A DNA stretch of 64,000 bases from the NCBI RefSeq assembly GCF_024700885.2, contig NZ_CP117016.1; one strand, 5' to 3'. Within the stretch, counting starts at the first letter, position 1. Every line of letters starts with the position of its first letter. The notes below the pieces were generated by a model. It did not search any database. It had not been told where the DNA came from and saw nothing but the letters and a program-made list of their open reading frames with translations. A program made the position numbers and the translations under genes. Source of the stretch: Escherichia coli. Its GTDB lineage: Bacteria > Pseudomonadota > Gammaproteobacteria > Enterobacterales > Enterobacteriaceae. This document shows positions 640-57,174 of this stretch, one piece after another.

Positions 640-922
640 AACTTAAAACAGCTTAGATCCTTGTTCGCCAGAAAGTTTCATCCATTTTCTTCCACCCAGG
701 TTGCGGAAGAACCACTTTTCATCCGTCGTTGACAGATGTGAAGTATGCGGGAGAAAAAGTGAATATCTAACTGTAATAACTCAGACCGGTACGAGTACTC
801 GGGGCGTCTACAATCATTCAGGGCAAAGTGCTAAAATTTCTCTATCCCGGGATGCCCCTACCAACGCAGCACTCCCGGAGATATCATTACAGCTCTGCAA
901 CTGATTTCCGCGACTGAACCGC

Positions 923-1333: not shown

Positions 1334-1339
1334 ATCTCC

Positions 1340-2495
<1,156 letters not shown>

Positions 2496-2496
2496 T

Positions 2497-2895
2497 TCAA
2501 GACAGTTGCTGAGCTGTCCGGGGAAGACTGAAACCTCCGGTCTGGCAGTGTGTGCAGTACCGCTCCCCATAATAATCGTGGTGACATTGTCTGCAGTGCC
2601 AGCTGGCTTTACGCACCACGGGTAAGGCATCCGGTACGAATTGCTGCAGACGTTTAATCAACTGTATTTCTCTGCGCTCCGGCCTGACATAAGGGCACTG
2701 TTGACCGTGCTCTGTCAGCCTGTCGTCAGTGTGTTCAAACCAGGGACGTTCAGTGTCGTATTGCGGATGGTAACTGAGTGCACTGCCACACAAGTGGCAG
2801 GTGTAGTTAGCATAAGGTGCGGCCTGTGCAGTACGGGCGCCCGTCAGACGTCCGTTGCCATCAAGAGCGATAAAGGATTTTGCGTACATAGTCAT
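2497..2895 (-). CDS. putative zinc-ribbon protein (paralog of 923..1333)
   Basis: 132-aa ORF with SD GAGGA before ATG 2895. It contains CHLCG...PWFEH...CRQC...CTHC. It lies immediately downstream of the Gp2-type gene on the same strand. Confidence 0.65.
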   Translation of the reverse strand: MTMYAKSFIALDGNGRLTGARTAQAAPYANYTCHLCGSALSYHPQYDTERPWFEHTDDRLTEHGQQCPYVRPERREIQLIKRLQQFVPDALPVVRKASWHCRQCHHDYYGERYCTHCQTGGFSLPRTAQQLS

Positions 2896-3055
2896 ATTCC
2901 TCAGCCGCCAGACGACACGCAGGCAACAGCCGTCCCGGTACGGGCAGCGTGGTCAGGTGTGAATAGCGGTTTTCAGTTCAGTCTCAGAAGGGAAAATCAG
3001 TGTGGTCGCTGTGAACGCGTCATCACACTAAGGTCAGATAAGTCGTCTGTCGGGC

Positions 3056-3625
3056 TCAGCCACGACTGCAGCCAAAGTTGCGCTCACCGGTGCAGTGAGC
3101 TTTGGTATGTTCCTTCGCCAGATAGTCAGCACGTTCCAGCACCTGCTGAAAGCCAGTGTCATCATCGCGTTCCAGCCACACCGCCGGCCAGGCCGGAAAA
3201 TGCACCAGCGTGGCATGGCACCCGACATCCACTCCCAGGGCACTGCACCACGCCTGTTTAATCATCCCGGCCAGTGATCCCGGAGCACGGTAATCACCGG
3301 CACGACACCAGGTATCCCGGTTAACCAGCAGCATCAGGTGATAGTGTTTTTTACCTTTGCACTCCCCAAACTCCCGGGCCCAGACGTAATGCAGGGTGGT
3401 GGGATGCACGCGTTTACCTTCCCGATGCTTACGTTTCTGGTAAGCGTCGATTCGGGCTTTCAGGGCATTGATGAAGCGGGATATCACAGCTGCGTCCGTT
3501 GCTGCCGGTACATCCGGGAAACGCAGGTCAACCCGCAATGCCGTCAGGCGGGGATGAACATTCAGTGCGTGCCGCACCGTCTCACGAATACGTTGCTGCC
3601 AGAAGGGGTTGTATTTGTAGGTCAT
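3056..3625 (-). CDS. inovirus Gp2-type / YagK-YfjJ-domain protein
   Basis: The product MTYKYNPFWQQRIRETV...HPRLTALRVDLRFP...KKHYHLMLLVNRD... resembles the YagK/YfjJ family of CP4-type islands. GGAG lies 8 nt before ATG 3625. The ORF-track N-terminal extension to 3661 is ignored. Confidence 0.7.
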   Translation of the reverse strand: MTYKYNPFWQQRIRETVRHALNVHPRLTALRVDLRFPDVPAATDAAVISRFINALKARIDAYQKRKHREGKRVHPTTLHYVWAREFGECKGKKHYHLMLLVNRDTWCRAGDYRAPGSLAGMIKQAWCSALGVDVGCHATLVHFPAWPAVWLERDDDTGFQQVLERADYLAKEHTKAHCTGERNFGCSRG

Positions 3626-10478: not shown

Positions 10479-13400
10479 ATGAAACGACATCTGAATACCT
10501 GCTACAGGCTGGTATGGAATCACATTACGGGCGCTTTCGTGGTTGCCTCCGAACTGGCCCGCGCACGGGGTAAACGTGGCGGTGTGGCGGTTGCACTGTC
10601 TCTTGCCGCAGTCACGTCACTCCCGGTGCTGGCTGCTGACATCGTTGTGCACCCGGGAGAAACCGTGAACGGCGGAACACTGGCAAATCATGACAACCAG
10701 ATTGTCTTCGGTACGACCAACGGAATGACCATCAGTACCGGGCTGGAGTATGGGCCGGATAACGAGGCCAATACCGGCGGGCAATGGGTACAGGATGGCG
10801 GAACAGCCAACAAAACGACTGTCACCAGTGGTGGTCTTCAGAGAGTGAACCCCGGTGGAAGTGTCTCAGACACGGTTATCAGTGCCGGAGGCGGACAGAG
10901 CCTTCAGGGACGGGCAGTGAACACCACGCTGAATGGTGGCGAACAGTGGATGCATGAGGGGGCGATAGCCACAGGAACCGTCATTAATGATAAGGGCTGG
11001 CAGGTCGTCAAGCCCGGTACAGTGGCAACGGATACCGTTGTTAATACCGGGGCGGAAGGGGGACCGGATGCAGAAAACGGTGATACCGGGCAGTTTGTTC
11101 GCGGGGATGCCGTACGCACAACCATCAATAAAAACGGTCGCCAGATTGTGAGAGCTGAAGGAACGGCAAATACCACTGTGGTTTATGCCGGCGGCGACCA
11201 GACTGTACATGGTCACGCACTGGATACCACGCTGAATGGGGGATACCAGTATGTGCACAACGGCGGTACAGCGTCTGACACTGTTGTGAACAGTGACGGC
11301 TGGCAGATTGTCAAAAACGGGGGTGTGGCCGGGAATACCACCGTTAATCAGAAGGGCAGACTGCAGGTGGACGCCGGTGGTACAGCCACGAATGTCACCC
11401 TGAAGCAGGGCGGCGCACTGGTTACCAGTACGGCTGCAACCGTTACCGGCATAAACCGCCTGGGAGCATTCTCTGTTGTGGAGGGTAAAGCTGATAATGT
11501 CGTACTGGAAAATGGCGGACGCCTGGATGTGCTGACCGGACACACAGCCACTAATACCCGCGTGGATGATGGCGGAACGCTGGATGTCCGCAACGGTGGC
11601 ACCGCCACCACCGTATCCATGGGAAATGGCGGTGTACTGCTGGCCGATTCCGGTGCCGCTGTCAGTGGTACCCGGAGCGACGGAAAGGCATTCAGTATCG
11701 GAGGCGGTCAGGCGGATGCCCTGATGCTGGAAAAAGGCAGTTCATTCACGCTGAACGCCGGTGATACGGCCACGGATACCACGGTAAATGGCGGACTGTT
11801 CACCGCCAGGGGCGGCACACTGGCGGGCACCACCACGCTGAATAACGGCGCCATACTTACCCTTTCCGGGAAGACGGTGAACAACGATACCCTGACCATC
11901 CGTGAAGGCGATGCACTCCTGCAGGGAGGCTCTCTCACCGGTAACGGCAGCGTGGAAAAATCAGGAAGTGGCACACTCACTGTCAGCAACACCACACTCA
12001 CCCAGAAAGCCGTCAACCTGAATGAAGGCACGCTGACGCTGAACGACAGTACCGTCACCACGGATGTCATTGCTCAGCGCGGTACAGCCCTGAAGCTGAC
12101 CGGCAGCACTGTGCTGAACGGTGCCATTGACCCCACGAATGTCACTCTCGCCTCCGGTGCCACCTGGAATATCCCCGATAACGCCACGGTGCAGTCGGTG
12201 GTGGATGACCTCAGCCATGCCGGACAGATTCATTTCACCTCCACCCGCACAGGGAAGTTCGTACCGGCAACCCTGAAAGTGAAAAACCTGAACGGACAGA
12301 ATGGCACCATCAGCCTGCGTGTACGCCCGGATATGGCACAGAACAATGCTGACAGACTGGTCATTGACGGCGGCAGGGCAACCGGAAAAACCATCCTGAA
12401 CCTGGTGAACGCCGGCAACAGTGCGTCGGGGCTGGCGACCAGCGGTAAGGGTATTCAGGTGGTGGAAGCCATTAACGGTGCCACCACGGAGGAAGGGGCC
12501 TTTGTCCAGGGGAACAGGCTGCAGGCCGGTGCCTTTAACTACTCCCTCAACCGGGACAGTGATGAGAGCTGGTATCTGCGCAGTGAAAATGCTTATCGTG
12601 CAGAAGTCCCCCTGTATGCCTCCATGCTGACACAGGCAATGGACTATGACCGGATTGTGGCAGGCTCCCGCAGCCATCAGACCGGTGTAAATGGTGAAAA
12701 CAACAGCGTCCGTCTCAGCATTCAGGGCGGTCATCTCGGTCACGATGACAATGGCGGTATTGCCCGTGGGCCACGCCGGAAAGCAGCGGCAGCTATGGCT
12801 TCGTCCGCCTGGAGGGTGACCTGCTGAGAACAGAGGTTGCCGGTATGTCTGTGACCGCAGGGATATATGGTGCTGCAGGCCATTCTTCCGTTGATGTTAA
12901 GGATGATGACGCCTCCCGTGCCGGCACGGTCCGGGATGATGCCGGCAGCCTGGGCGGATACCTGAATCTGATACACAACGCCTCCGGACTGTGGGCTGAC
13001 ATTGTGGCCCTGGGAACCCGCCACAGCATGAAAGCGTCAACGGACAATAACGACTTCCGCGCCCGGGGTTGGGGCTGGCTGGGTTCACTGGAAACCGGTC
13101 TGCCCTTCAGTATCACTGACAACCTGATGCTGGAGCCACAACTGCAGTATACCTGGCAGGGACTTTCCCTGGATGACGGTAAGGACAACGCCGGTTATGT
13201 GAAGTTCGGGCATGGCAGTGCACAACATGTGCGTGCCGGTTTCCGTCTGGGCAGCCACAACGATATGACCTTTGGCGAAGGCACCTCATCCCGTGCCCCC
13301 CTGCGTGACAGTGCAAAACACAGTGTGAGTGAATTACCGGTGAACTGGTGGGTACAGCCTTCTGTTATCCGCACCTTCAGCTCCCGGGGAGATATGCGTG

Positions 13401-13597
13401 TGGGGACTTCCACTGCAGGCAGCGGGATGACGTTCTCTCCCTCACAGAATGGCACATCACTGGACCTGCAGGCCGGACTGGAAGCCCGTGTCCGGGAAAA
13501 TATCACCCTGGGCGTTCAGGCCGGTTATGCCCACAGCGTCAGCGGCAGCAGCGCTGAAGGGTATAACGGTCAGGCCACACTGAATGTGACCTTCTGA
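10479..13597 (+). pseudogene. flu: antigen 43 autotransporter, 1-nt deletion frameshift at 12768-12770
   Basis: MKRHLNTCYRLVWNHITGAFVVASELARARGKRGG... through the C-terminal ...GYNGQATLNVTF. The span is 3119 nt (3n-1). The first frame reads ...GIARG (ggg 12768-70). The second frame is open from 12770 as ATPESSGSYGFVRLEGDLLRTEVAGMSVTAG. So a GGGG run appears as GGG. Confidence 0.9.
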
Positions 13598-13617
13598 CAG
13601 AACCATCGCCTCTCTGT

Positions 13618-13642
13618 GGTCCCGGTCATCATGACCGGGACC
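13618..13642 (+). terminator. GC-rich palindrome downstream of flu
   Basis: GGTCCCGGTCAT-c-ATGACCGGGACC lies 20 nt after the flu stop. There is no U-tract, so its function is uncertain. Confidence 0.35.
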
Positions 13643-13717
13643 CGGACCGGCGCAACGGATCTTCAACGCCACATTCGCTGGCATTAACAATAACATGATA
13701 TTCATCACGGAGTGACT

Positions 13718-16234
13718 ATGTTACAGATAGTCGGCGCGCTGATCCTGCTGATCGCAGGATTTGCCATTCTTCGCCTTTTGTTCAGAGCATTAATCAGCAC
13801 GGCTTCTGCGCTGGCAGGGCTCATATTGCTGTGTCTGTTCGGCCCGGCCTTACTGGCTGGCTATATCACCGAACGCATAACCCGGTTGTTCCATATTCGC
13901 TGGCTGGCAGGCGTATTTCTGACGATTGCCGGAATGATCATCAGCTTCATGTGGGGACTTGATGGTAAACATATCGCGCTGGAGGCTCACACCTTTGACT
14001 CTGTGAAATTTATTCTGACCACCGCTCTCGCCGGTGGTCTGCTGGCTGTTCCCCTGCAGATCAAAAACATTCAGCAGAACGGGATCACACCAGAAGATAT
14101 CAGCAAGGAAATTAACGGGTATTACTGCTGTTTTTATACTGCCTTTTTCCTTATGGCGTGTTCTGCATGCGCACCATTGATCGCGTTACAGTACGATATT
14201 TCACCGTCACTGATGTGGTGGGGCGGGTTGTTGTACTGGCTGGCTGCATTAGTGACGCTGCTATGGGCGGCCAGCCAGATCCAGGCGCTGAAAAAACTGA
14301 CCTGTGCCATCAGCCAGACACTGGAAGAACAACCGGTGCTCAACAGTAAATCGTGGCTGACCAGTTTGCAAAACGATTACAGCCTTCCTGACTCACTGAC
14401 GGAGCGCATCTGGCTGACGCTCATTTCTCAACGGATTTCCCGGGGAGAGCTGAGGGAATTTGAACTGGCAGACGGAAACTGGTTACTGAACAATGCCTGG
14501 TATGAAAGAAACATGGCAGGGTTTAACGAACAGTTGAAAGAGAACCTGTCATTCACACCTGATGAACTGAAAACGCTCTTCCGGAACCGCCTGAATTTAT
14601 CACCGGAAGCGAATGACGATTTTCTCGATCGTTGCCTGGACGGCGGTGACTGGTATCCCTTTTCAGAAGGTCGCCGTTTTGTATCATTCCATCACGTGGA
14701 TGAGCTTCGTATCTGTGCCTCCTGCGGGCTGACAGAAGTACATCATGCCCCGGAAAATCATAAGCCGGATCCGGAATGGTACTGCTCCTCTCTTTGTCGC
14801 GAAACAGAAACACTGTGTCAGGAAATTTATGAACGCCCTTACAACAGCTTTATTTCCGATGCAACGGCGAATGGTCTGATTCTCATGAAACTGCCGGAAA
14901 CCTGGAGTACAAATGAGAAAATGTTTGCTTCCGGAGGGCAGGGACATGGGTTTGCCGCTGAACGGGGAAACCATATTGTCGACAGAGTCCGTCTGAAAAA
15001 CGCACGGATCCTCGGTGATAATAATGCCAGAAATGGAGCAGACAGACTGGTCAGCGGAACAGAAATCCAGACGAAATATTGTTCAACTGCAGCCCGTAGC
15101 GTCGGTGCGGCATTCGACGGACAAAACGGACAGTATCGTTACATGGGAAATAATGGCCCCATGCAACTGGAAGTCCCCCGTGATCAGTATGCCGGCGCTG
15201 TTGAAACCATGAGGAATAAGATCCGCGAAGGTAAAGTACCCGGTGTAACCGATCCCGCAGAAGCGTCCCGGCTGATTCGTCGGGGACATCTGACTTATAC
15301 TCAGGCCCGTAATATCACCCGGTTCGGGACCATCGAATCGGTCACTTATGATATTGCCGAGGGTTCGGTTGTCAGTCTGGCGGCCGGAGGGATCAGTTTT
15401 GCCCTGACGGCATCGGTCTTCTGGCTCAGCACCGGCGATCGCGATGCTGCCCTGCAGACAGCTGCTGTCCAGGCAGGAAAAACCTTCACCCGCACACTGG
15501 CTGTCTACATCACAACCCAGCAACTCCACCGGCTCAGTGTTGTTCAGGGTATGCTGAAGCACATTGATTTTTCGACTGCCAGCCCGACTGTCCGACTGGC
15601 TCTTCAGAAGGGGACCGGTGCAGGAAATATCAGTGCCCTGAACAAAGTAATGAAGGGTACGCTGGTGACATCTCTGGCACTGGTAGCTGTCACAACCGGC
15701 CCTGACATGATCAAAATGTTGCGGGGACGGATCTCCGGTGCGCAGTTCATCAGGAATCTTGCCGTGGCATCTTCCGGTGTGGCAGGTGGAGCTGTCGGGT
15801 CAGTGGCGGGCGGGATACTGTTCAGTCCACTGGGACCATTTGGTGCACTGACAGGGCGTGTGGTTGGCGGTGTTCTGGGGGGAATGATTGCCTCCGCTGT
15901 ATCAGGAAAAATTGCCGGAGCGCTGGTTGAAGAAGATCGCGTCAAAATTCTGGCAATGATTCAGGAGCAGGTGACATGGCTTGCCGGCAGTTTCCTGCTG
16001 ACCGGACATGAGATTGAAAATCTGAACGAGAATCTGGCCCGTGTTATCGATCAGAATGCTCTGGAGATCATTTTCGCCGCCGGTATACAACAACGGGCCG
16101 CGACCAATATGTTAATCAAACCACTGGTGGTCAGTATCATCAGGCAACGCCCCGTCATGGAATATGATGCATCCCATCTCGGCAATATGGTTAACCGACT
16201 GGAAGAAGCATTACCCCCGGAGTTACCGGCATAA
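13718..16234 (+). CDS. yeeR: inner-membrane protein YeeR, long (838-aa) form
   Basis: MLQIVGALILLIAGFAILRLLFRALISTASALAG... GGAG lies 5 nt before ATG 13718. There are several N-terminal TM helices, a central Cys cluster (CASCG...CSSLC), a GGQGHGFAAERGN motif, and a Gly-rich hydrophobic C-terminal region. Confidence 0.8.
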   Translation: MLQIVGALILLIAGFAILRLLFRALISTASALAGLILLCLFGPALLAGYITERITRLFHIRWLAGVFLTIAGMIISFMWGLDGKHIALEAHTFDSVKFILTTALAGGLLAVPLQIKNIQQNGITPEDISKEINGYYCCFYTAFFLMACSACAPLIALQYDISPSLMWWGGLLYWLAALVTLLWAASQIQALKKLTCAISQTLEEQPVLNSKSWLTSLQNDYSLPDSLTERIWLTLISQRISRGELREFELADGNWLLNNAWYERNMAGFNEQLKENLSFTPDELKTLFRNRLNLSPEANDDFLDRCLDGGDWYPFSEGRRFVSFHHVDELRICASCGLTEVHHAPENHKPDPEWYCSSLCRETETLCQEIYERPYNSFISDATANGLILMKLPETWSTNEKMFASGGQGHGFAAERGNHIVDRVRLKNARILGDNNARNGADRLVSGTEIQTKYCSTAARSVGAAFDGQNGQYRYMGNNGPMQLEVPRDQYAGAVETMRNKIREGKVPGVTDPAEASRLIRRGHLTYTQARNITRFGTIESVTYDIAEGSVVSLAAGGISFALTASVFWLSTGDRDAALQTAAVQAGKTFTRTLAVYITTQQLHRLSVVQGMLKHIDFSTASPTVRLALQKGTGAGNISALNKVMKGTLVTSLALVAVTTGPDMIKMLRGRISGAQFIRNLAVASSGVAGGAVGSVAGGILFSPLGPFGALTGRVVGGVLGGMIASAVSGKIAGALVEEDRVKILAMIQEQVTWLAGSFLLTGHEIENLNENLARVIDQNALEIIFAAGIQQRAATNMLIKPLVVSIIRQRPVMEYDASHLGNMVNRLEEALPPELPA

Positions 16235-16309
16235 CGGCTATTCTGCGCCTTTTACGCTTTATCACCTGATTTGTCAGTGTCATCGTCATGACTCAGAGAG
16301 GTAAATACC

Positions 16310-16765
16310 ATGATTCACCTGTTCAAAACCTGCATGATTACCGCCTTCATTCTGGGGTTAACGTGGTCTGCCCCACTCCGGGCACAGGATCAACGTTACA
16401 TCAGTATACGCAATACAGATACGATATGGCTCCCGGGAAATATTTGTGCTTACCAGTTCCGGCTGGATAATGGCGGAAACGATGAAGGATTTGGCCCCCT
16501 CACCATCACTCTGCAACTCAAAGACAAATATGGTCAGACGCTGGTGACCAGAAAAATGGAAACGGAAGCCTTTGGTGACAGTAATGCCACGCGAACCACA
16601 GACGCATTTCTGGAAACGGAGTGCGTGGAAAATGTCGCCACAACCGAAATCATTAAAGCAACTGAAGAAAGTAACGGCCATCGTGTCAGTCTGCCGTTAT
16701 CGGTTTTCAATCCCCAGGACTACCATCCACTGCTGATTACCGTTTCCGGAAAAAACGTTAACTGA
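16310..16765 (+). CDS. secreted protein, probably IrmA family
   Basis: The signal peptide is MIHLFKTCMITAFILGLTWSAPLRA/QD. It is 151 aa and followed by a terminator. The IrmA assignment is from memory of annotations downstream of yeeR. Confidence 0.6.
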   Translation: MIHLFKTCMITAFILGLTWSAPLRAQDQRYISIRNTDTIWLPGNICAYQFRLDNGGNDEGFGPLTITLQLKDKYGQTLVTRKMETEAFGDSNATRTTDAFLETECVENVATTEIIKATEESNGHRVSLPLSVFNPQDYHPLLITVSGKNVN

Positions 16766-16790
16766 TCCCTGAAGTCAGTTTCATGCTTCA

Positions 16791-16825
16791 GCCTCTGTCA
16801 CAACGCGTGGCAGAGGCTTTTTATT
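16791..16825 (+). terminator. rho-independent terminator
   Basis: GCCTCTG-tcacaacgcgtgg-CAGAGGC followed by TTTTTATTT. Confidence 0.75.
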
Positions 16826-16843
16826 TATCAGGAGAAAACAGAT

Positions 16844-17077
16844 ATGCCGGGTTACACAGAGTATGTCCTGGCTGAAGGATCTTTCTCATACGGGCAGGCG
16901 GTTGCTGTCATAACCGCTTACCGCAATGTGTTTATCCAGGATGACCCGGGAATGCATTTCCGTCGGGTTATCCGCAACGCGGAAGGTCAGCGACGCTGGC
17001 GCTGCCGGAATTCTGAACCCGATGCCGGAAAGGTGCTTAATACGCGGCTCGCCAGTGACGGTCTTCTCAGACAATAA
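16844..17077 (+). CDS. DUF905-like small protein
   Basis: 77 aa, in the position of DUF905 genes in CP4-type islands (before DUF932). The assignment rests on synteny and memory. Confidence 0.55.
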
Positions 17078-17100
17078 ACGTCATTCATTTCACCCATCAG

Positions 17101-17131
17101 GCCGCGTCTTCTCCGGGAGACGTGGCTTTTT
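17101..17131 (+). terminator. rho-independent terminator
   Basis: 11-bp stem GCCGCGTCTTC / GGGAGACGTGGC with a tetraloop, then TTTTTCATTT. Confidence 0.75.
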
Positions 17132-17176
17132 CATTTATTACACCAGTAAATCTTAACCACCGATAAGGAGCAAATT

Positions 17177-17995
17177 ATGCGACTAGCCAGTCGTTTTGGT
17201 TATGCGAACCAGATACGCCGTGACCGTCCGCTGACACACGAAGAACTGATGCACTATGTGCCGGGGATTTTCGGGGAAGATAAACACACGTCCCGAAGCC
17301 AGAACTATACGTACATCCCCACCATCACCGTACTGGAAAGCCTGCAGCGGGAAGGCTTTCAGCCATTCTTCGCCTGCCAGACCCGTGTGCGCGACCCGGG
17401 CCGCCGGGGATACACAAAACACATGCTGCGTCTGCGGCGGGCCGGAGAGATAAACGGAGAACATGTCCCTGAAATTATTCTGCTCAACTCTCATGACGGT
17501 ACCTCCAGCTACCAGATGCTGCCGGGGTACTTCAGGTTCGTCTGCCAGAACGGCTGCGTCTGTGGTCAGTCTCTGGGGGAAGTACGTGTTCCGCACCGGG
17601 GAAATGTGGTGGACAGAGTCATTGAAGGGGCTTACGAGGTGGTGGGCGTGTTTGACCGGATAGAGGAGAAGCGTGATGCCATGCAGTCGCTGGTCCTGCC
17701 GCCACCGGCACGCCAGGCGCTGGCACAGGCGGCACTGACTTACCGTTATGGTGACGAACATCAGCCCGTCACCACCGCCGACATTCTGACGCCGCGACGC
17801 CGGGAGGATTACGGTAAGGACCTGTGGAGCGCATATCAGACCATCCAGGAGAATATGCTGAAAGGCGGGATTTCCGGTCGCAGTGCAAAAGGAAAACGTA
17901 TCCATACCCGGGCCATTCACAGCATTGATACCGACATTAAGCTCAATCGCGCATTGTGGGTGATGGCAGAAACGATGCTGGAGAGCCTGCGCTGA
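17177..17995 (+). CDS. DUF932 (YfjQ/YafZ-like) protein
   Basis: 272 aa: MRLASRFGYANQIRRDRPLTHEELMHYVPGIFGEDKHTSRSQNYTYIPT... The size and sequence are typical of the UPF0380 YfjQ/YafZ family. Confidence 0.8.
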   Translation: MRLASRFGYANQIRRDRPLTHEELMHYVPGIFGEDKHTSRSQNYTYIPTITVLESLQREGFQPFFACQTRVRDPGRRGYTKHMLRLRRAGEINGEHVPEIILLNSHDGTSSYQMLPGYFRFVCQNGCVCGQSLGEVRVPHRGNVVDRVIEGAYEVVGVFDRIEEKRDAMQSLVLPPPARQALAQAALTYRYGDEHQPVTTADILTPRRREDYGKDLWSAYQTIQENMLKGGISGRSAKGKRIHTRAIHSIDTDIKLNRALWVMAETMLESLR

Positions 17996-18076
17996 TGCCG
18001 TTTCCCTGAGTGAGGGAATCATTCAGCTTTCGTTCCTGAAAAACACACATTTATTTGTTATTTAAGGAGTTATCTC

Positions 18077-18556
18077 ATGAAAACCGTTTCTCAGAATACC
18101 CCCACAATTTATTCAGCTACAACACCAGAGAATAATCCGCCTCAGTTGGTTGCCAGCCTCGTCCCTGATGAACAGCGCATCAGCTTCTGGCCGCAGCATT
18201 TTGGCCTCATTCCACAGTGGGTGACCCTGGAGCCCCGTGTCTTCGGCTGGATGGACCGTCTGTGCGAAGACTACTGCGGTGGTATCTGGAATCTGTACAC
18301 CCTGAACAACGGCGGGGCATTTATGGCACCCGAACCGGATGACGATGATGACGAAACATGGGTACTGTTCAATGCCATGAACGGTAACCGCGCAGAAATG
18401 AGCCCGGAAGCCGCCGGTATTGCCGCCTGTCTGATGACGTACAGTCATCATGCCTGTCGTACGGAGAATTATGCCATGACGGTCCATTATTACCGGTTGC
18501 GGGATTACGCCCTGCAGCATCCGGAATGCAGCGCCATTATGCGCATCATCGACTGA
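18077..18556 (+). CDS. antirestriction protein (YfjX/YafX, ArdB/KlcA-like)
   Basis: ...ISFWPQHFGLIPQWVTLEPRVFGWMDRLCEDYCGGIWNLYTLNNGGAFMAPE... with an acidic DDDDDE tract. Conserved position in the island. Confidence 0.8.
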   Translation: MKTVSQNTPTIYSATTPENNPPQLVASLVPDEQRISFWPQHFGLIPQWVTLEPRVFGWMDRLCEDYCGGIWNLYTLNNGGAFMAPEPDDDDDETWVLFNAMNGNRAEMSPEAAGIAACLMTYSHHACRTENYAMTVHYYRLRDYALQHPECSAIMRIID

Positions 18557-18571
18557 ATGGAGAGAAGCACA

Positions 18572-19048
18572 ATGCAACAACTTTCCTTTCTGCCCGGAGA
18601 GATGACGCCCGGCGAGCGCAGCCTCATTCAACGGGCCCTGAAAACCCTGGACCGCCATCTTCATGAACCCGGCGTGGCCTTCACCTCCACCCGTGCGGCA
18701 CGGGAATGGCTGATTCTGAACATGGCGGGACTGGAGCGTGAAGAGTTCCGGGTGCTGTATCTGAATAACCAGAATCAGCTGATTGCCGGTGAAACCCTCT
18801 TCACCGGCACCATCAACCGCACGGAAGTCCATCCCCGGGAAGTGATTAAACGCGCCCTGTACCACAATGCCGCTGCCGTGGTACTGGCACACAATCACCC
18901 GTCCGGTGAAGTCACACCCAGTAAGGCAGACCGGCTTATCACCGAACGTCTGGTACAGGCACTGGGCCTGGTGGATATCCGGGTGCCGGACCATCTGATA
19001 GTCGGTGGCAACCAGGTTTTCTCCTTTGCCGAACATGGTCTGCTTTAA
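18572..19048 (+). CDS. yeeS: RadC-like JAB-domain protein
   Basis: MQQLSFLPGEMTPGERSLIQRALKTL...VLAHNHPSGEVTPSKADRLIT (JAMM motif H-x-H-P-S-G). Confidence 0.9.
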   Translation: MQQLSFLPGEMTPGERSLIQRALKTLDRHLHEPGVAFTSTRAAREWLILNMAGLEREEFRVLYLNNQNQLIAGETLFTGTINRTEVHPREVIKRALYHNAAAVVLAHNHPSGEVTPSKADRLITERLVQALGLVDIRVPDHLIVGGNQVFSFAEHGLL

Positions 19049-19110
19049 CCCTTCACAACCACATCACACCTGTTTTCACTTTTATCTTCTGTCTTCAGAG
19101 GTATCCCATT

Positions 19111-19332
19111 ATGAAAATTATCACCCGTGGTGAAGCCATGCGTATTCACCAACAACATCCGACATCCCGTCTTTTTCCGTTCTGTACCGGTAAATACCGC
19201 TGGCACGGCAGTGCTGAAGCGTATACCGGTCGTGAAGTGCAGGATATTCCCGGTGTGCTGGCCGTGTTTGCTGAACGCCGTAAGGACAGTTTTGGTCCGT
19301 ATGTCCGGCTGATGAGCGTCACCCTGAACTGA
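19111..19332 (+). CDS. yeeT: DUF987 protein
   Basis: MKIITRGEAMRIHQQHPTSRLFPFCTGKYRWHGSAEAYTGREVQDIPGVLAVFAERRKDSFGPYVRLMSVTLN. Confidence 0.9.
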   Translation: MKIITRGEAMRIHQQHPTSRLFPFCTGKYRWHGSAEAYTGREVQDIPGVLAVFAERRKDSFGPYVRLMSVTLN

Positions 19333-19405
19333 GTGGGAATTCTGATGAGCAGAATTATCGCCACTACCGGACCATTCTTAGCCGATTTTCTGTAAGGATT
19401 TTATC

Positions 19406-19774
19406 GTGTCAGACACACTCCCCGGGACAACACTTCCCGACGACAATCACGACCGCCCCTGGTGGGGGCTGCCCTGCACCGTGACGCCCTGTTTCGGGGC
19501 ACGTCTGGTGCAGGAGGGTAACCGGTTGCATTACCTTGCCGACCGCGCCGGTATCAGAGGCCTGTTCAGCGATGCAGATGCGTACCACCTGGACCAGGCC
19601 TTTCCGCTGCTGATGAAACAACTGGAACTCATGCTCACCAGCGGTGAACTGAATCCCCGCCATCAGCATACCGTCACGCTGTATGCAAAAGGGCTGACCT
19701 GCAAAGCCGATACCCTCAGCAGTTGTGGTTACGTTTATCTGGCTGTTTATCCGACGCCCGAAATGAAAAATTAA
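19406..19774 (+). CDS. cbeA: type IV antitoxin CbeA (YeeU)
   Basis: GTG start. MSDTLPGTTLPDDNHDRPWWGLPCTVTPCFGARLVQEGNRLHYLADRAGIRG...YPTPEMKN. Confidence 0.9.
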   Translation: MSDTLPGTTLPDDNHDRPWWGLPCTVTPCFGARLVQEGNRLHYLADRAGIRGLFSDADAYHLDQAFPLLMKQLELMLTSGELNPRHQHTVTLYAKGLTCKADTLSSCGYVYLAVYPTPEMKN

Positions 19775-19862
19775 CTCTCCAGAATAGCCTTCTGCTACGG
19801 CCTGGTGTTTTCACCACGCCACTTTTCCATTTTTATATCTGCATATCAGGAAAATCTTCAGT

Positions 19863-20057
19863 ATGAAAACATTACCTGTATTACCCGGGCAGGCGGCCAG
19901 TTCTCGCCCGTCTCCTGTTGAAATCTGGCAGATACTGCTGTCCCGACTGCTGGACCAGCACTATGGCCTCACACTGAATGACACACCTTTTGCCGATGAA
20001 CGTGTGATTGAGCAGCATATTGAGGCAGGCATTTCACTGTGTGATGCGGTGAACTGA
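19863..20057 (+). pseudogene. cbtA: cbtA (yeeV) toxin gene, 5' half (codons 1-64) truncated by prophage insertion
   Basis: [64 protein letters not shown], then TGA supplied by the first 3 nt of the prophage. The reading continues at 57175 (FLVEKYALVRTD...). Confidence 0.9.
20049..20054. repeat. target-site duplication, left copy (GTGAAC)
   Basis: The identical hexamer occurs at 57175-57180. Both are cbtA codons Val-Asn. Confidence 0.8.
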
Positions 20058-20099
20058 TGCGCCGCGCGATAAATGCACTCTATCTTGTGCGATAAATGG
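20055..20099 (+). repeat. prophage terminal repeat, late-gene end (putative transposase binding sites)
   Basis: TGATGCGCCGCGCGATAAATGCACTCTATCTTGTGCGATAAATGG. Position-for-position it matches the reverse complement of the other end: TGAT at 1-4, G(C/A)GATAAATG at 12-21, GTG(C/A)GATA at 33-40. Confidence 0.75.
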
Positions 20100-20132: not shown

Positions 20133-20705
20133 TTACATTTCAGGTTGCGTTATGACAGTCCCAACAGGGTGATAGCGGTAGATCGTTGACAGTCCAATAT
20201 CATAGATAATTGCCAGCCGCTTTCTGTCATACCCTTTCTGGAGCAATCTTGCGATCTGCTCATGCTGCTCCTTCGTCAGTTTCGGGCGACGTCCTCCAAC
20301 TCTTCCTTGTGCTCGCGCAGCAGCCAGTCCAGCCAGCGTGCGCTCAACTATCAGTTCACGCTCCATTTCTGCCAGTGCACCCATCATATGAAAAAAGAAC
20401 CTTCCCATCGGAGTGCTGGTATCGATTGAATCCGTCAGACTGCGAAAATTGACACCTTTTGCGCGTAGCTCTTCTGTGAGAGCAATGAGGTGTTTCATTC
20501 TTCTACCCAACCGATCCAGCTTCCAGACCACCAATGTATCCCCTCTTTTAAGGCACTTTAAAGCGCGTTTCAGGCCTGGTCGTTCCGACTTGGTTCCGCT
20601 CATTTTGTCCTCAAAAATCTGTTCACATCCTGCGCACATTAATGCATTGCGTTGCAAATCTGTGTTTTGGTCATTTGTTGACACACGTATGTAGCCAATC
20701 AGCAT
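20133..20705 (-). CDS. Gin/Pin/Cin/Hin-family serine DNA invertase
   Basis: MLIGYIRVSTNDQNTDLQRNALMCAGCEQIFEDKMSGTKSERPGLKRALKCLKRGDTLVVWKLDRLGR... is near-identical in pattern to Mu Gin. Start taken at ATG 20705. Confidence 0.92.
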   Translation of the reverse strand: MLIGYIRVSTNDQNTDLQRNALMCAGCEQIFEDKMSGTKSERPGLKRALKCLKRGDTLVVWKLDRLGRRMKHLIALTEELRAKGVNFRSLTDSIDTSTPMGRFFFHMMGALAEMERELIVERTLAGLAAARAQGRVGGRRPKLTKEQHEQIARLLQKGYDRKRLAIIYDIGLSTIYRYHPVGTVITQPEM

Positions 20706-20759
20706 TAAAAATACTCCCTTTTGAGTGGTTAAAGTACTGAGATAATGTGGGGAGGATTT

Positions 20760-20785
20760 GAGAGATAAACGTTGGTTTGGGGGAA
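20760..20785 (+). other. invertase crossover site A (gix/hix-like, 26 bp)
   Basis: GAGAGATAAACG-TT-GGTTTGGGGGAA. The right half-site is shared with sites B and C. It is in inverted orientation relative to site C. Confidence 0.7.
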
Positions 20786-21205
20786 GGCTCGGCGCTGCCC
20801 GTTGGTGTACCTGTTCCGTGGCCCACTGCCACACCGCCAGCAGGCTGGTTAAAGTGCGACGGGCGCGCCTTTACAAAAGAACAATATCCTGTTCTGGCCA
20901 GAGTCTACCCGACCCTCCGTCTTCCCGATTTGCGCGGTGAGTTTATCCGTGGATGGGACGACGGGCGAAAAGTGGATACAGGGCGCGATCTGCTTTCACG
21001 GCAGGATGGTACAAGTTTTTCTCATTACGCAGGTAATTTTGACATTGGGTCTGGTCATTCAATCAATAACTATGACCAAATCCTTGACAACCAACCTGGA
21101 TTCTCCCGTTTTTCATTTGCAGGTCCTTCGCGAGGCGATGGGGTTAATTATGTGACCATTCGTCCCCGTAACATTGCGTTTAATTACATCGTAAGGGCGG
21201 CATAG
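20777..21205 (+). other. silent alternative tail-fibre C-terminal cassette A (no start codon or promoter of its own)
   Basis: In frame from the crossover site: LGEGSALPVGVPVPWPTATPPAGWLKCDGRAFTKEQYPVLARVYPTLRLPDLRGEFIRGWDDGRKVDTGR (tail-collar-type motif), then a unique end ...RPRNIAFNYIVRAA*. The frame is closed upstream by TGA at 20759-61. The first ~200 nt are nearly identical to the inverted segment 22600-22815. Confidence 0.8.
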
Positions 21206-21224
21206 AAACGTTGGTTTGGGGGAA
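21199..21224 (+). other. invertase crossover site B (gix/hix-like, 26 bp)
   Basis: GGCATAGAAACG-TT-GGTTTGGGGGAA. Direct repeat of site A, inverted relative to site C. Confidence 0.7.
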
Positions 21225-21677
21225 GGCTCTGCATTGCCTGTTGGTGTACCGGTTCCATGGCCCACCGCCACACCGCCAGCAGGCTGGTTACAGTGCAACG
21301 GAGCTACGTTCACCAAAGAACAATATCCTGTTCTGGCCAGAGTCTACCCGACCCTCCGTCTTCCCGATTTGCGCGGTGAGTTTATCCGTGGATGGGACGG
21401 TGGTCGCAAGGTTGATACCGGGCGTGCGCTACTTTCATTTCAGGAAGGGACTATCGTATCCGGTTTTGATGATAATGATACCGGAGATATCAGTTCGCTC
21501 GGCTCTACACAATACGGATTTGGTGACGCTTTAACCTCTAATCAACTGGGGGTCTTAAATGGCAAAAAGTGGATATTTGATGCATCCTCTAAAGGTGCAC
21601 AAAGATATGACTGGTGGGCTTATGTATCAGCTCGCCCCCGCAATATCGCATTTAACTATATCGTGAGGGCGGCGTGA
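21216..21677 (+). other. silent alternative tail-fibre C-terminal cassette B
   Basis: GEGSALPVGVPVPWPTATPPAGWLQCNGATFTKEQYPVLARVYPTLRLPDLRGEFIRGWDGGRKVDTGR..., with a different distal part, ending ...RPRNIAFNYIVRAA*. Confidence 0.8.
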
Positions 21678-21683
21678 TACCGT

Positions 21684-22298
21684 TCAGCCGGCAAGCGCCA
21701 GTGGCGCTTCCGGCCAGCTGATTTCAGGTGCCTTGCTGATATCCAGTGCGTTCAGCTCGTCGATATAATCCAGCACGGCGTTCAGTTTTGCCGTTTCTTC
21801 TGGTTTCAGACTGCGACCAGCACGCAGTTTGAGGTTGATAAGATCGACGGACGCCATCGCCTGTTTCACCCGTTGCTGGCGTTGCTGTCTGGCAACCTCC
21901 AGTTCTGCGGCTCGCTGCCGTTCAGTATCGGTTACCCACGCCTCACCGTTCCAGGTATCCCATGGCGTGGCTGGCTGTTTTGTGGTGGTGTCCGCCGGGT
22001 AATCACCCGGTTGGGTAATCAGAACGGGGTTACCGTTCTCCGTGCTGTATACCGTCTCGCCGCGGTGATCAGGCACATGCTCCCACCCGTTCAGCGTGGC
22101 AGTCCGGCAAACCACGTAACCCGAAATTGCTTCCGGCGGTGCATCGGCGCACGAATGTGCCGGAGTACCCACCCCAAGGGCGAGATACTCCACAGAGGAT
22201 GAGGTGTATTCCCGGGTTTCCTCGTCATAGTGATATACAGTGATATCGCCCGCTACAGTGGCGATACCGTTTTCATCCAGAACTGCAGTGTTACTCAT
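21684..22298 (-). CDS. tail fibre assembly (chaperone) protein
   Basis: 204 aa. The ATG overlaps the fibre stop (TAATG). ...GWEHVPDHRGETVYSTENG...WNGEAWVTD...ISWPEAP is the usual Tfa/gpG/U pattern. Confidence 0.85.
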   Translation of the reverse strand: MSNTAVLDENGIATVAGDITVYHYDEETREYTSSSVEYLALGVGTPAHSCADAPPEAISGYVVCRTATLNGWEHVPDHRGETVYSTENGNPVLITQPGDYPADTTTKQPATPWDTWNGEAWVTDTERQRAAELEVARQQRQQRVKQAMASVDLINLKLRAGRSLKPEETAKLNAVLDYIDELNALDISKAPEISWPEAPLALAG

Positions 22299-23971
22299 TA
22301 AACTGCCCTCACAATGTAATTAAGTGCAATGCTACGGGGTCTGACAGTGATACCCTTCGCATACCCGCTTCTGATAGAGGTCAGAATAGTAGCCTGCATA
22401 CCATTGTCTGACATTGCCACGACAGGATCGCTGAATGTTGTCCCGTCCGGCATTTTAAAGCTGCCCTCACGAAGGTCTGTAATGGAATCTTCATTGTTGA
22501 ATCCCATGCCGACTATCCCCGAGGTTCCCGTAGTGTCCTGGTTATAATAATCCAGCATTGCTGTTCTTAACAGCGTTGCCCCTTGTGCGGACAGCAACTT
22601 ACGTCCTGTATCAACTTTGCGCCCGTCGTCCCATCCACGGATAAACTCACCGCGTAAATCGGGAAGACGGAGGGTCGGGTAGACTCTGGCCAGAACAGGA
22701 TATTGTTCTTTTGTAAAGGCGCGCCCGTCGCACTTTAACCAGCCTGCTGGCGGTGTGGCGGTGGGCCACGGAACAGGCACACCAACGGGTAGCGCCGAGC
22801 CTTCTCCTAAACCAAGGTAATTGAGGACATCTTTTATACTGCCCTTAGCGATAATAGCGCGACCAATAGCTGTAAGGGTTGCCAGCTCTGCGCGGTCTGC
22901 TCCGGTAAAATAAGGCAACCGATCTGCTGCAGTGGCAAGTCCTGCCAGAGCAGTGAGCGTGGCATCTGCCGGTTGTTTTCCGTTTGCCAGATCGTATGCA
23001 GCCTTGACCGCTTTCGGTGTGGCGGCCAGTATTTCAGACGTGCTGTTGATGGCACTGCTCAATTGTACGGTGCCTTTTGCCGTCAGCGAGGCAGCAGGCA
23101 CTCCCGTTATCTGACTCCACGGGTGAGTGTGGCTGACGGGCGCCTTGCCGGCTGCAAGGTCGTATGCAGCCTTGACCGCCTTCGGCGTGGCAGCCTCAGT
23201 TTCTGATTGACTGTCCGTGGCGCTGCTCAGTTGTACGGTGCCTTTTGCCGTCAGCGAGGCAGCAGGCACTCCCGTTATCTGACTCCACGGGTGAGTGTGG
23301 CTGACGGGCGCCTTGCCGGCTGCAAGGTCGTATGCAGCCTTGACGGCCTTTGGTGTGGCGGCCAGCGTTTCAGAGGTGCTGTTGGTGTCACTGCTCAATT
23401 GTACGGTGCCTTTTGCCGTCAGCGAGGCAGCAGGCACTCCCGTTATCTGACTCCACGGGTGAGTGTGGCTGACGGGCGCCTTGCCGGCTGCAAGGTCGTA
23501 TGCAGCCTTGACCGCCTTCGGCGTGGCAGCCTCAGTTTCTGATTGACTGTCCGTGGCGCTGCTCAGTTGTACGGTGCCTTTTGCCGTCAGCGAGGCAGCA
23601 GGCACTCCCGTTATCTGACTCCACGGGTGAGTATGGCTGACGGGGGCCTTGCCGGCAGCCAGGTCATATGCAGCCTTGACGGCCTTTGGTGTGGCGGCCA
23701 GCGTTTCAGAGGTGCTGTTGGTGGCACTGCTCAGTTGGGTGAACCCCTTAGCTGTCAGTGTCGCGTCCGGGTGGTTACGGGAACGTACGTGTTCAGCCAG
23801 TGACTGTGCGGCTTCCTCCGTTTTTTTCTTCAGCCATTTCGTCCTGTTTGCCAGTTGCCGGGGGGCTCGATTTGATATCCCGTCTGCACCACCCAGAACC
23901 GGATCTGATGTCTCCAGTTGATAGATATTTTCTTCCCACTTTTCTGTTTCATTCAGGTTTCCCATAATCAA
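22298..23971 (-). CDS. tail fibre protein (constant N-terminal part + currently expressed C-terminal cassette C)
   Basis: 557 aa with repeated TAKGTVQLSSAT.S.SET.AATPKAVKAAYDLA fibre repeats. The C-terminal 168 aa follow crossover site C, starting LGEGSALPVGVPVPWPTATPPAGWLKCDG... and ending ...RPRSIALNYIVRAV*. Confidence 0.9.
   Translation of the reverse strand: MIMGNLNETEKWEENIYQLETSDPVLGGADGISNRAPRQLANRTKWLKKKTEEAAQSLAEHVRSRNHPDATLTAKGFTQLSSATNSTSETLAATPKAVKAAYDLAAGKAPVSHTHPWSQITGVPAASLTAKGTVQLSSATDSQSETEAATPKAVKAAYDLAAGKAPVSHTHPWSQITGVPAASLTAKGTVQLSSDTNSTSETLAATPKAVKAAYDLAAGKAPVSHTHPWSQITGVPAASLTAKGTVQLSSATDSQSETEAATPKAVKAAYDLAAGKAPVSHTHPWSQITGVPAASLTAKGTVQLSSAINSTSEILAATPKAVKAAYDLANGKQPADATLTALAGLATAADRLPYFTGADRAELATLTAIGRAIIAKGSIKDVLNYLGLGEGSALPVGVPVPWPTATPPAGWLKCDGRAFTKEQYPVLARVYPTLRLPDLRGEFIRGWDDGRKVDTGRKLLSAQGATLLRTAMLDYYNQDTTGTSGIVGMGFNNEDSITDLREGSFKMPDGTTFSDPVVAMSDNGMQATILTSIRSGYAKGITVRPRSIALNYIVRAV
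22802..22827 (+). other. invertase crossover site C (gix/hix-like, 26 bp) inside the expressed fibre gene
   Basis: TTCTCCTAAACC-AA-GGTAATTGAGGA. Compare the remembered gix sequence TTCCTGTAAACC-GA-GGTTTTGGATAA. Confidence 0.7.
22985..23755 (-). repeat. in-frame tandem repeats in tail fibre gene (168-nt unit, 336-nt higher-order unit, ~4.6 copies)
   Basis: The 56-aa unit TAKGTVQLSSATDSQSETEAATPKAVKAAYDLAAGKAPVSHTHPWSQITGVPAASL alternates with a ...SSDTNSTSETLAAT... variant. Long stretches are nucleotide-identical (e.g. 23207-23542 versus the following 336 nt). Confidence 0.9.
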
Positions 23972-32146: not shown

Positions 32147-32395
32147 TCAGCAAGTGCGAAACCCCTTGCAGTTACGCAGGAAAGCGATGAGAAGCGTCTT
32201 TCCCTCAGATTTGCCGGTGCCGGAGAACCAGTGGTCGGGAGGCTCCCATGCTTCAATCAAATCCGCCAGTTTGCGGGCCTTTGAACGTGTGCAGTCAATC
32301 GGGTCATTGGTTTTACGGGTATTAAAAAGGGTTTCCACCCCCCGGAATATCAAGGAGGGTAAACCACGTACCATTTGACATGCCCAGTGCCGCAC
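32147..32395 (-). CDS. hypothetical small ORF between tube and chaperone genes
   Basis: The only ORF in a 380-nt gap. It has a GTG start and no convincing SD. No family recognised. Confidence 0.3.
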   Translation of the reverse strand: MRHWACQMVRGLPSLIFRGVETLFNTRKTNDPIDCTRSKARKLADLIEAWEPPDHWFSGTGKSEGKTLLIAFLRNCKGFRTC

Positions 32396-36848: not shown

Positions 36849-37964
36849 TTACAGGCAGCGTGCGACAGCAGCCTCATAGCTGATGCCTTCTTTTTTGGAC
36901 AGGGCCACTGCTTTCTGATGCAGGGCCAGACGCTCAGGATCGGCTTCCGCAAACTCTGCCACATCCACCTTCACCGTGTCGCCGACACGCTCTTTTGTGG
37001 CCTGTTCGGCGAAATTCATCACCGGCTCCCCGTCGGAGAGCAATGAACGAAAGGCGGTGGCCAGCGGTGTGCGGCTTTCCCCCTCAGCAAACTCCACCGG
37101 CTTGTCGCCACCGGCGACGGCATCCAGCAGGGCAACCACCACGGAGGAGGCGCGGGGAGCCAGACGGCCCTCTGCGACCAGTTTTTCTGCAAAGGCCACA
37201 TTGTCCTTATGCAGTTGCTCCTGTCTGACCTGTGCATCACGCGCATCGCGATCAGCAGCCTGCTGCTTCAGGCGGCGGTTCTCCTCCTGAAGGGCTTCAA
37301 TCTCTTCTTTTGTCATCGATGATTCCTCGTTACTTGCGGAAGACGGCACCTGGCCTGTCTCACTGAATTGCGCACCTGCTGCATCCTGCGACGGTGTGTC
37401 GCGGTACGCCTCTTCGCGCAGATTGTTGAGCTGCCATTCCGGCAGGACTTTTTCTGCTTCGTCCAGACTGAAGCGGGCGATCAGAAAATCGCGCAGCTTT
37501 CCCCACAGGGAGGCATTCGTGATGGCCTGCCAGTCGGCGAACTCCACCACACCTTCTTCCTGCTCACTGAAGGACACCTGTTTCAGCCCCTTGACGGAAG
37601 GTGGCTGTGCCCCGAGAAAGCCCACATGGCGCAGGTAGAGCACGCCGGGCTTCGGATTGGACGGTGAATCCGGGAGGTAGAAAGAGGCGGACACTTTTTT
37701 GAATCGTCCGTCGGTGACCATCTCAGCAAACTGCGGGTCCAGCTGGGCAGGCTCTGCCATCAGATCGACGCCGCTGAGCGACAGGGCTTTCACCCAGCCC
37801 CACGCCGGGTCTTCCGTTCTGGGATGACCAATCACGAGTGGTGCTTCATGGACGGACGGGTCATAGGCTTTCACGCAGGCGGCAAGATCGTCTGGCGTGA
37901 ACGGCAGTTTTTTGCCGTGCATATCGGTATGAGTACCGGCTTTAAAAATGTGAATGGCTGACAT
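36849..37964 (-). CDS. Mu gpI-like head protease/scaffold protein
   Basis: MSAIHIFKAGTHTDMHGKKLPFTPDDLAACVKAYDPSVHEAPLVIGHP...WGWV..., with a coiled-coil C-terminal half (EEIEALQEENRRLKQQAADRDARD). Confidence 0.8.
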   Translation of the reverse strand: MSAIHIFKAGTHTDMHGKKLPFTPDDLAACVKAYDPSVHEAPLVIGHPRTEDPAWGWVKALSLSGVDLMAEPAQLDPQFAEMVTDGRFKKVSASFYLPDSPSNPKPGVLYLRHVGFLGAQPPSVKGLKQVSFSEQEEGVVEFADWQAITNASLWGKLRDFLIARFSLDEAEKVLPEWQLNNLREEAYRDTPSQDAAGAQFSETGQVPSSASNEESSMTKEEIEALQEENRRLKQQAADRDARDAQVRQEQLHKDNVAFAEKLVAEGRLAPRASSVVVALLDAVAGGDKPVEFAEGESRTPLATAFRSLLSDGEPVMNFAEQATKERVGDTVKVDVAEFAEADPERLALHQKAVALSKKEGISYEAAVARCL

Positions 37965-46889: not shown

Positions 46890-46943
46890 TCCCTAAACCA
46901 CATTAACAGAAATCCCGCCATCCCTGCCGCATCATGAAAGAAC

Positions 46944-48317: not shown

Positions 48318-48340
48318 AAAAGTGAATCTCTATCTTGATA

Positions 48341-57099: not shown

Positions 57100-57174
<75 letters not shown>

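Follow-up and report, generated by a model that had tools for sequence, protein, structure and literature searches.

Introduction

How did a phage come to lie inside the toxin gene of a toxin–antitoxin pair of Escherichia coli, and what does it leave of the pair? The question is raised by a stretch of 64,000 nucleotides (hereafter the window), which lies on the reverse strand of the chromosome of E. coli MLI114 (NZ_CP117013.1). MLI114 is a stool isolate positive for extended-spectrum β-lactamase, obtained from a European soldier on deployment in Mali (PMC10198576). In the window, a prophage separates the two halves of the toxin gene cbtA, with the antitoxin gene cbeA directly upstream and yeeW downstream. 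CbtA of E. coli K-12 exerts its toxicity via FtsZ and MreB, and this toxicity is neutralized by CbeA (PMC5624674). The first-pass annotation of the window proposed that a transposable phage had landed in cbtA and had left CbeA an orphan. Here we describe the insertion at the level of single bases and compare it with a set of 5,426 complete E. coli genomes, to which all genome counts below refer.

Results

The prophage splits cbtA exactly to the base

The open reading frame (ORF) at positions 19863–20057 encodes 64 residues with the C-terminal sequence ISLCDAVN, followed by TGA. The cbtA frame resumes at 57175 (GTG AAC TTT CTC) and reaches its stop codon at 57361–57363. Joining 19863–20054 with 57181–57363 restores a continuous frame of 124 codons (375 nt), which is identical to cbtA of K-12 MG1655 (b2005) at 375 of 375 nt. 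The rejoined product also covers the whole Pfam profile CbtA_toxin (PF06755), from position 1 to 112 of 112, with E = 3e-58. Both halves are already annotated as pseudogene fragments by RefSeq. The split of cbtA by the prophage is thus exact to the base and far beyond chance.

The first-pass annotation had ended codons 1–64 at 20054, resumed the gene at 57175 and ascribed the end of the 64-residue fragment to the first triplet of the phage itself. Translation confirms all of these coordinates, including the TGA at 20055–20057. The annotation had also suggested a comparison of the joined halves with K-12 cbtA as a check and had noted that a broken frame would speak against the split; the frame proves to be unbroken.

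The hexamer GTGAAC, noticed beforehand as a Val-Asn pair at both junctions, is found at 20049–20054 and again at 57175–57180, and it occurs only once in K-12 cbtA (nt 187–192). To fix the ends of the element, we aligned its two junctions from six independent insertions in different genomes and genes. All six have identical termini, beyond which the sequence diverges at once. In 6/6 cases the element is flanked by a perfect 6-bp direct repeat, the duplicated hexamers being GTGAAC, GAGAAG, GGTGAC, CTGAAA, GTTTTT and GTTCAG. Taken together with this pattern, the Val-Asn pair at both junctions in MLI114 is a genuine 6-bp target-site duplication.

The element belongs to the BcepMu type of transposable phages

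The closest named phage is Escherichia phage PhiKM (PQ738613), which comes from uropathogenic E. coli and is placed in the genus Bcepmuvirus by GenBank. The two share 99.6% nucleotide identity over the 25 kb compared, and their transposases are 100% identical, so that PhiKM is effectively the same phage as the MLI114 element. The PhiKM record is partial, is interrupted by a sequencing gap and does not tell where the phage was inserted, whereas the MLI114 copy is integrated and has defined ends and two possible lesions in tail genes.

The transposase of the element shows 67.8% amino acid identity to that of BcepMu, over 98% of the protein, and 56.3% to TnpA of Pseudomonas phage B3 (tblastn). 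As expected for a phage of the BcepMu type, the element encodes an rve-core DDE transposase, a homologue of BcepMu gp09, and beside it an AAA ATPase. TG...CA termini, which are invariant in the six independent insertions, are known to characterize BcepMu-related prophages with a Tn552-related rve transposase (PMC2628397). Phage transposases of the B3/Tn552 family generate a 6-bp duplication together with TG-CA ends, in contrast to the 5 bp of Mu (PMC8705779). A transposase of the BcepMu type (Tn552/B3 family) therefore accounts for a duplication of 6 bp rather than the 5 bp of Mu. B3 itself and the transposon Tn552, the latter not a phage, share with the MLI114 element a related rve transposase and the published 6-bp duplication (PMC8705779). 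On the other hand, B3-like phages have a flexible tail, and BcepMu-like phages a contractile one (PMC6776037).

The gene order also follows that of the BcepMu type: Mor and GemA occupy the extreme end, the early operon reads outward, and then come the repressor, the lysis genes and the genes for a Mu-like head and a P2-like tail. By comparing the element with Burkholderia phage BcepMu (NC_005882, Bcepmuvirus), we find similar termini, which consist of TGA, approximately eight bases, and two copies of a repeat of the GAGATA(A/T)(A/T)T type, the inner copy about 23 nt from the outer one. In both phages a Tn552-type rve transposase is followed by an ExeA-type ATPase, and GemA and Mor lie at the extreme end and read outward. 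The lysis genes, the Mu-like head module and the P2-like contractile tail are collinear. The two differ in host (Burkholderia for BcepMu and E. coli for the MLI114 element) and in the content of one end, where BcepMu carries an acyltransferase, whereas the MLI114 element carries a Gin-like invertase and an invertible tail-fibre segment. A dam-type methylase and different small accessory genes further distinguish the MLI114 element.

Several features are reminiscent of Mu (Muvirus). Both Mu and the MLI114 element are temperate transposable E. coli phages with a size of about 37 kb, quasi-random insertion, TG...CA ends, a Gin-type invertible tail-fibre segment and homologues of Mor, GemA and Gam. 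However, Mu makes a 5-bp duplication and has repressor, ner, A and B at its left end reading inward, whereas the MLI114 element makes a 6-bp duplication, has an early region reading outward and has a P2-like tail. No record of Mu or D108 appears among the 69 phage hits of the transposase by tblastn at E <= 1e-5, a search in which MuA was not aligned directly. Mu proper, which is suggested by the invertase, the TG...CA ends and the size of about 37 kb, is ruled out by the 6-bp duplication, by the rve-only transposase without a match to Mu or D108 and by the outward early operon. Every testable defining feature of the BcepMu type is present and the tested Mu features are absent; judged by its sequence, the element is a BcepMu-type (Bcepmuvirus) transposable phage. 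The earlier proposal of a transposable phage in cbtA is borne out by the TG...CA ends, the 6-bp duplication and the rve transposase.

cbtA is one of many insertion sites

The invertase end of the phage is present in 596 of the 5,426 genomes (11%), usually once per genome and in up to three places. Thirteen places are on plasmids, an example being the 92.5-kb record NZ_CP028585.2. The genes adjoining the phage end vary widely; examples are srlE, php, eamA, fliZ, ssuB, dmsC, irp2, aes, the gene of a metal-dependent hydrolase and tail genes that belong to other prophages. No other genome among the 5,426 has the phage in cbtA. Since the adjoining genes are many, unrelated and non-essential, and a single genome has the phage in cbtA, we regard cbtA as one quasi-random hit and not as a preferred target. 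Features of an integrase-type prophage, namely an integrase and a conserved attachment site, are not seen: the only recombinase is the Gin-like invertase, and all examined sites differ.

Many of the listed phage-bearing genomes belong to sequence type ST131. Many of these ST131 copies probably share one inherited clonal insertion, and they probably make up a large share of the total.

In NZ_CP032261.1 (strain AR_0067), one of the insertions with a perfect duplication (CTGAAA), the two flanks are annotated as parts of different broken genes. In coordinates of that locus, one flank is a 5' fragment of fliZ (320–574) and the other a 3' fragment of a site-specific integrase gene (37490–37831). A rearrangement of the target may have preceded the insertion; alternatively, the annotation may mislead.

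The target is the cbtA locus of a CP4-44-type island

The CbtA_toxin-family gene (PF06755) lies directly 3' of the CbeA_antitoxin-family gene (PF06154), the arrangement expected of a CbtA/CbeA module. That cbeA is intact and directly upstream (19406–19774) had been stated in the first-pass annotation, and the ORF and the Pfam match agree; in comparison with K-12 cbeA, 1 nt and 1 amino acid are different. The order yeeS-yeeT-cbeA-cbtA-yeeW, followed by tmaR-yeeA-sbmC-dacD, is that of the right end of the cryptic prophage CP4-44 of K-12, and about 3 kb around the reconstructed empty site is collinear with K-12. These CP4-44 neighbours identify the true cbtA locus, as opposed to its paralogues ykfI or ypjF. 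The module of MLI114 thus resembles the CbtA/CbeA (YeeV/YeeU) module of K-12 CP4-44 in its gene sequences and in the neighbours yeeS, yeeT, tmaR, yeeA, sbmC and dacD. The difference is that cbtA is uninterrupted in K-12, whereas in MLI114 it is split by a 37 kb prophage. Upstream of yeeS the island differs from that of K-12 and carries DUF932, antirestriction and IrmA genes.

In order to locate uninterrupted relatives, a check that the first-pass annotation had suggested, we reconstructed 1,000 bp of the empty site. Many complete genomes contain it at 100% identity over its full length, including MLI109, ECONIH4 and SLK172, and cbeA, cbtA and yeeW are intact there. ECONIH4, SLK172 and HSP60 are approximately 100% identical to MLI114 over the 8-kb left flank. 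The combination of near-identical left flanks with an empty site indicates that the insertion is recent relative to the divergence of the island. MLI109, from the same study as MLI114, has the empty site and diverges by about 1% over the flanks. MLI121, which is 14 core-genome multilocus sequence typing (cgMLST) alleles apart from MLI114 (PMC10198576), is absent from the closest genomes by flank comparison.

Both 400-bp junction probes are fully covered in one of the 5,426 genomes, and that genome is MLI114. Within it, the junction probes and a cbtA-only probe each match four places, which fits one junction plus three cbtA paralogues, with no second copy of the prophage.

Consequences for CbtA, CbeA and yeeW

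In CbtA, residue F65 is needed for the interaction with FtsZ and residue R15 for that with MreB, and the double mutant is non-toxic (Heller et al., PMC5624674). The break falls exactly between N64 and F65, with R15 in the N-terminal piece and F65 in the C-terminal piece. As the phage terminus begins with TGA in frame, the native transcript can encode only CbtA 1–64. Codons 65–124, 37 kb away, would be left without a promoter, a ribosome-binding site or a proper start. The GTG at 57175 opens an ORF of 62 residues (57175–57363), and no Shine-Dalgarno-like sequence lies upstream of it. One Pfam domain spans the break, and both pieces of CbtA are for this reason expected to be non-functional. The insertion should therefore inactivate the toxin gene. 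An intact, expressible toxin is not found at this locus of MLI114, where the gene is split after codon 64 by TGA and both parts are RefSeq pseudogenes. A PDB sequence search with CbtA returned no match.

The description of CbeA as orphaned holds locally, where the cognate toxin is split. It does not hold for the cell as a whole, as three other cbtA-like places exist in MLI114 and CbeA acts on FtsZ and MreB and not on the toxin. Indeed, CbeA is reported to act by bundling FtsZ and MreB without binding the toxin, and to protect against several other inhibitors of FtsZ (PMC5624674).

Downstream of the prophage, yeeW and the genes that follow have lost their connection to the upstream region of cbeA-cbtA and lie directly downstream of the outward-reading mor. 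A polar effect on yeeW may result, and the expression of yeeW and of the genes beyond may depend on the state of the prophage. No terminator-like site was found on the + strand between mor and the cbtA 3' fragment or yeeW, in a scan that performed no better than shuffled controls.

One may also imagine a split and rewired module. A 64-residue peptide made from the native promoter would retain some MreB-directed activity buffered by CbeA, and transcription of the F65 piece and of yeeW would require the outward early operon of the phage to fire. If this were true, a fragment of a cell-division inhibitor would be tied to phage induction. We consider such a module highly unlikely.

Other features of the prophage and the island

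The coordinates of the features are collected in Table 1. The prophage has a G+C content of 54.9%, compared with 51.0% in the flanks. It is reversed relative to the BcepMu map: the invertase/tail-fibre end is the left one in the window, and the Mor/early end is the right one. The direction of the early operon is outward, and Mor is the terminal gene before the end. The remaining genes include homologues of Gam and GemA (gp16 family), a helix-turn-helix (HTH) repressor region, the dam-type methylase, a lysis cassette and structural genes for the Mu-like head and the P2-like contractile tail. The motif of the end repeats has four matches in the window against 0.45 expected, and three of the four are at the ends of the element.

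Table 1. Features of the split cbtA locus and of the prophage, with positions in the window
Feature	Position	Strand	Basis or remark
cbeA (yeeU), type IV antitoxin gene, intact	19406–19774	+	Pfam CbeA_antitoxin (PF06154), E = 4e-53; RefSeq WP_001285585.1
cbtA 5' fragment, codons 1–64	19863–20054	+	Native upstream region retained; K-12 cbtA nt 1–192; RefSeq pseudogene 'missing C-terminus'
Target-site duplication GTGAAC, left copy (cbtA codons 63–64)	20049–20054	.	6 bp
BcepMu-type transposable prophage, 37,120 bp	20055–57174	-	Termini 5'-TGATGCG...TAATCA-3'; TG...CA ends
TGA stop closing the 64-residue CbtA fragment	20055–20057	+	First three bases of the prophage terminus
Two GCGATAAATG repeats at the invertase end, candidate transposase-binding sites	20066–20075, 20089–20098	+	Motif scan
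Gin-like serine invertase beside the invertible tail-fibre segment	20133–20705	-	RefSeq 'recombinase family protein' WP_000904922.1; Pfam Resolvase, E = 9e-51 (query 20262–20834)
Transposase TnpA, rve-type DDE core, Tn552/B3/BcepMu family	50224–51993	+	Pfam: rve only
Transposition ATPase (TnpB/MuB analogue, ExeA-type AAA)	52004–53170	+	Pfam AAA_22, E = 4e-20; position of BcepMu gp08, 'DNA transposition protein'
Mor/C-family late activator, last gene of the early operon, reading outward to the cbtA 3' fragment	56623–57012	+	RefSeq 'Mor transcription activator family protein'; position of BcepMu gp01
GAGATAAATG repeat at the Mor end, opposite in orientation to those of the invertase end	57154–57163	-	Motif scan
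Target-site duplication GTGAAC, right copy	57175–57180	.	6 bp
cbtA 3' fragment, codons 65–124 and stop	57181–57363	+	No promoter or start codon attached; K-12 cbtA nt 193–375; RefSeq pseudogene 'missing N-terminus'
yeeW (DUF5983), intact, downstream	57360–57554	+	Pfam DUF5983_N, E = 2e-29; matches K-12 yeeW at 195/195 nt; moved by the insertion to a distance of 37 kb from the cbeA-cbtA upstream region

The Gin-like invertase adjoins a multi-cassette, invertible tail-fibre region (20706–22818) and is not an integration enzyme. A 229-nt arm at 22590–22818 is an inverted repeat of the arms at 20769–20997 (93%) and 21208–21436 (86%). Two tandem alternative ORFs for the tail-fibre C-terminus (20777–21205 and 21216–21677) are nearly alike in their first 24 residues. 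This arrangement suggests more than two switchable variants of the receptor-binding protein.

Between the repressor region and the lysis cassette, at about 45567–48320, the content varies among otherwise near-identical copies of the prophage. Depending on the copy, the stretch contains hypothetical genes, a gene for a nucleoid-associated protein or one for an 'ABC transporter ATPase', and the dam methylase is present or absent. The stretch looks like a hotspot of accessory genes, and its cargo could serve defence or anti-defence.

Compared with four other copies, the MLI114 prophage shows two changes, both flagged by RefSeq. A G-to-A change at 31779 creates a stop codon in a tail-assembly (gpE-like) gene, and a homopolymer of C6 instead of C5 at about 32338–32343 causes a frameshift in the neighbouring 93-residue gene. 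A residual Nanopore error may account for the homopolymer change, and the G-to-A change is more likely to be real. If the lesions are real, the prophage may be tail-defective; its transposition genes appear intact.

In the island, positions 1–3500 contain a decayed transposase of the ISL3 family, with a frameshift and a stop, and a transposase of the IS110 family with an internal stop. Beyond these decayed insertion sequences, out to about 8,050, lie genes of the small zinc-ribbon, Hha/YmoA and YfjI families, which are typical of CP4-type islands. In MLI114, the gene agn43 for the autotransporter adhesin Ag43 (10479–13597) carries an annotated frameshift. Over 12055–20054, MLI114 has 8,000 nt and the closest genomes have 8,001, so that MLI114 has a 1-nt deletion in this stretch, probably in agn43.

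Discussion

Our analysis makes it almost certain that cbtA, in the CP4-44-type island of MLI114, received a phage of the BcepMu type through strand transfer by a DDE transposase. Following the published mechanism of Mu and B3 (PMC8705779), the transposase would have joined the 3' ends of the phage to target phosphates staggered by 6 bp, and gap repair would have produced the duplication of GTGAAC. The insertion would be a single transpositional integration, one quasi-random and tolerated hit that is recent on the scale of the divergence of the island, and it would persist because cbtA is dispensable. No sequence evidence contradicts this structural account. Transposable phages such as Mu replicate by transposition without excising, and a restoration of cbtA on induction of the prophage is accordingly not expected.

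Other routes to the same structure deserve consideration. Duplications of 5 bp are made by Mu (PMC8705779), the classical transposable phage of E. coli, and one could suppose that such a duplication occurred here, with the sixth base matching by coincidence. However, all six insertions have identical termini and perfect 6-bp repeats, for which a true length of 5 bp would give a chance of approximately (1/4)^6 = 2e-4, and the transposase belongs to the 6-bp B3/Tn552 family; the six perfect repeats rule out a duplication of the Mu type, and we give the idea next to no weight. The recombinase gene at one end of the element might point to site-specific integration at an attachment site within cbtA. 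This recombinase, however, is a Gin-like serine invertase beside a segment with 229-nt inverted repeats, the flanking genes and hexamers differ at every insertion examined, and no other genome uses the cbtA site. The diversity of insertion sites rules out this route, whose probability we judge negligible. A third concern is that the junctions are an artefact of assembly, joining unrelated contigs, since Nanopore R9.4.1 reads were the main basis of the assembly (PMC10198576) and the genome shows a few suspicious frameshifts. Yet a misjoin would not yield exact termini, a perfect duplication and flanks that rejoin to 375/375 nt of cbtA, and the Trycycler consensus was cross-validated against short-read (SKESA) and hybrid (Unicycler) assemblies (PMC10198576). 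The chance of an artefact is accordingly minute.

With the transpositional insertion retained, two further readings concern its effect. The split gene may not be null: the 64-residue fragment with R15, or the 62-residue product with F65 that starts at GTG 57175, perhaps by read-through on induction, might keep partial activity towards MreB or FtsZ. The determinants for MreB and FtsZ are genetically separable and lie on opposite sides of the break (PMC5624674), a GTG-initiated ORF of 62 residues exists, and mor reads toward the 3' fragment with no terminator-like site on the + strand between them by scan. However, a single Pfam domain spans the break, so that half-proteins are unlikely to fold, and the GTG at 57175 is preceded by no Shine-Dalgarno-like sequence; we find retained activity very unlikely. 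The insertion may also have been selected and not merely tolerated, either because the loss of CbtA benefits the host or because the phage gains by disabling a toxin–antitoxin module that might act in abortive infection. Loss of a toxin gene should be harmless, and a hit in cbeA might be harmful. In addition, deleting all three toxin genes of K-12 together alters the resistance to oxidative stress, so the toxins have phenotypes (PMC5371832). Against selection, the event is found in only 1/5,426 genomes, the same phage family adjoins many unrelated genes without preference for toxin–antitoxin loci, and three cbtA-like loci remain in MLI114, so that the function of the family is not removed. Selection is therefore improbable in our view. 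The earlier suggestion that the site is neutral or beneficial for the host is plausible on survivorship grounds and a reasonable inference.

Several observations qualify the predicted functional consequences of the insertion. The 64-residue fragment keeps R15, the determinant for MreB. Three other places in MLI114 match the 5' half of cbtA, by match count only. Promoter and terminator scans around both junctions did no better than shuffled controls, and read-through into the 3' fragment or yeeW is neither shown nor excluded by them. The lesion in agn43 could be a true inactivation or a sequencing error, and those in two prophage genes could likewise be real or stem from residual Nanopore homopolymer errors.

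The insertion adds one more case to a familiar class of events and is already reflected in public annotation, and it implies no new mechanism or family; beyond annotation it matters little. It does provide a base-precise natural example, in E. coli, of an insertion of the BcepMu type whose 6-bp scar is distinct from that of Mu. The phage family is common, in approximately 11% of complete E. coli genomes and at many different sites, and it thereby disrupts host genes. In MLI114, a clinical isolate with paralogous loci, the result is a natural, presumably cbtA-null, cbeA-positive allele, which could suit asking what role CbeA plays without its cognate toxin.

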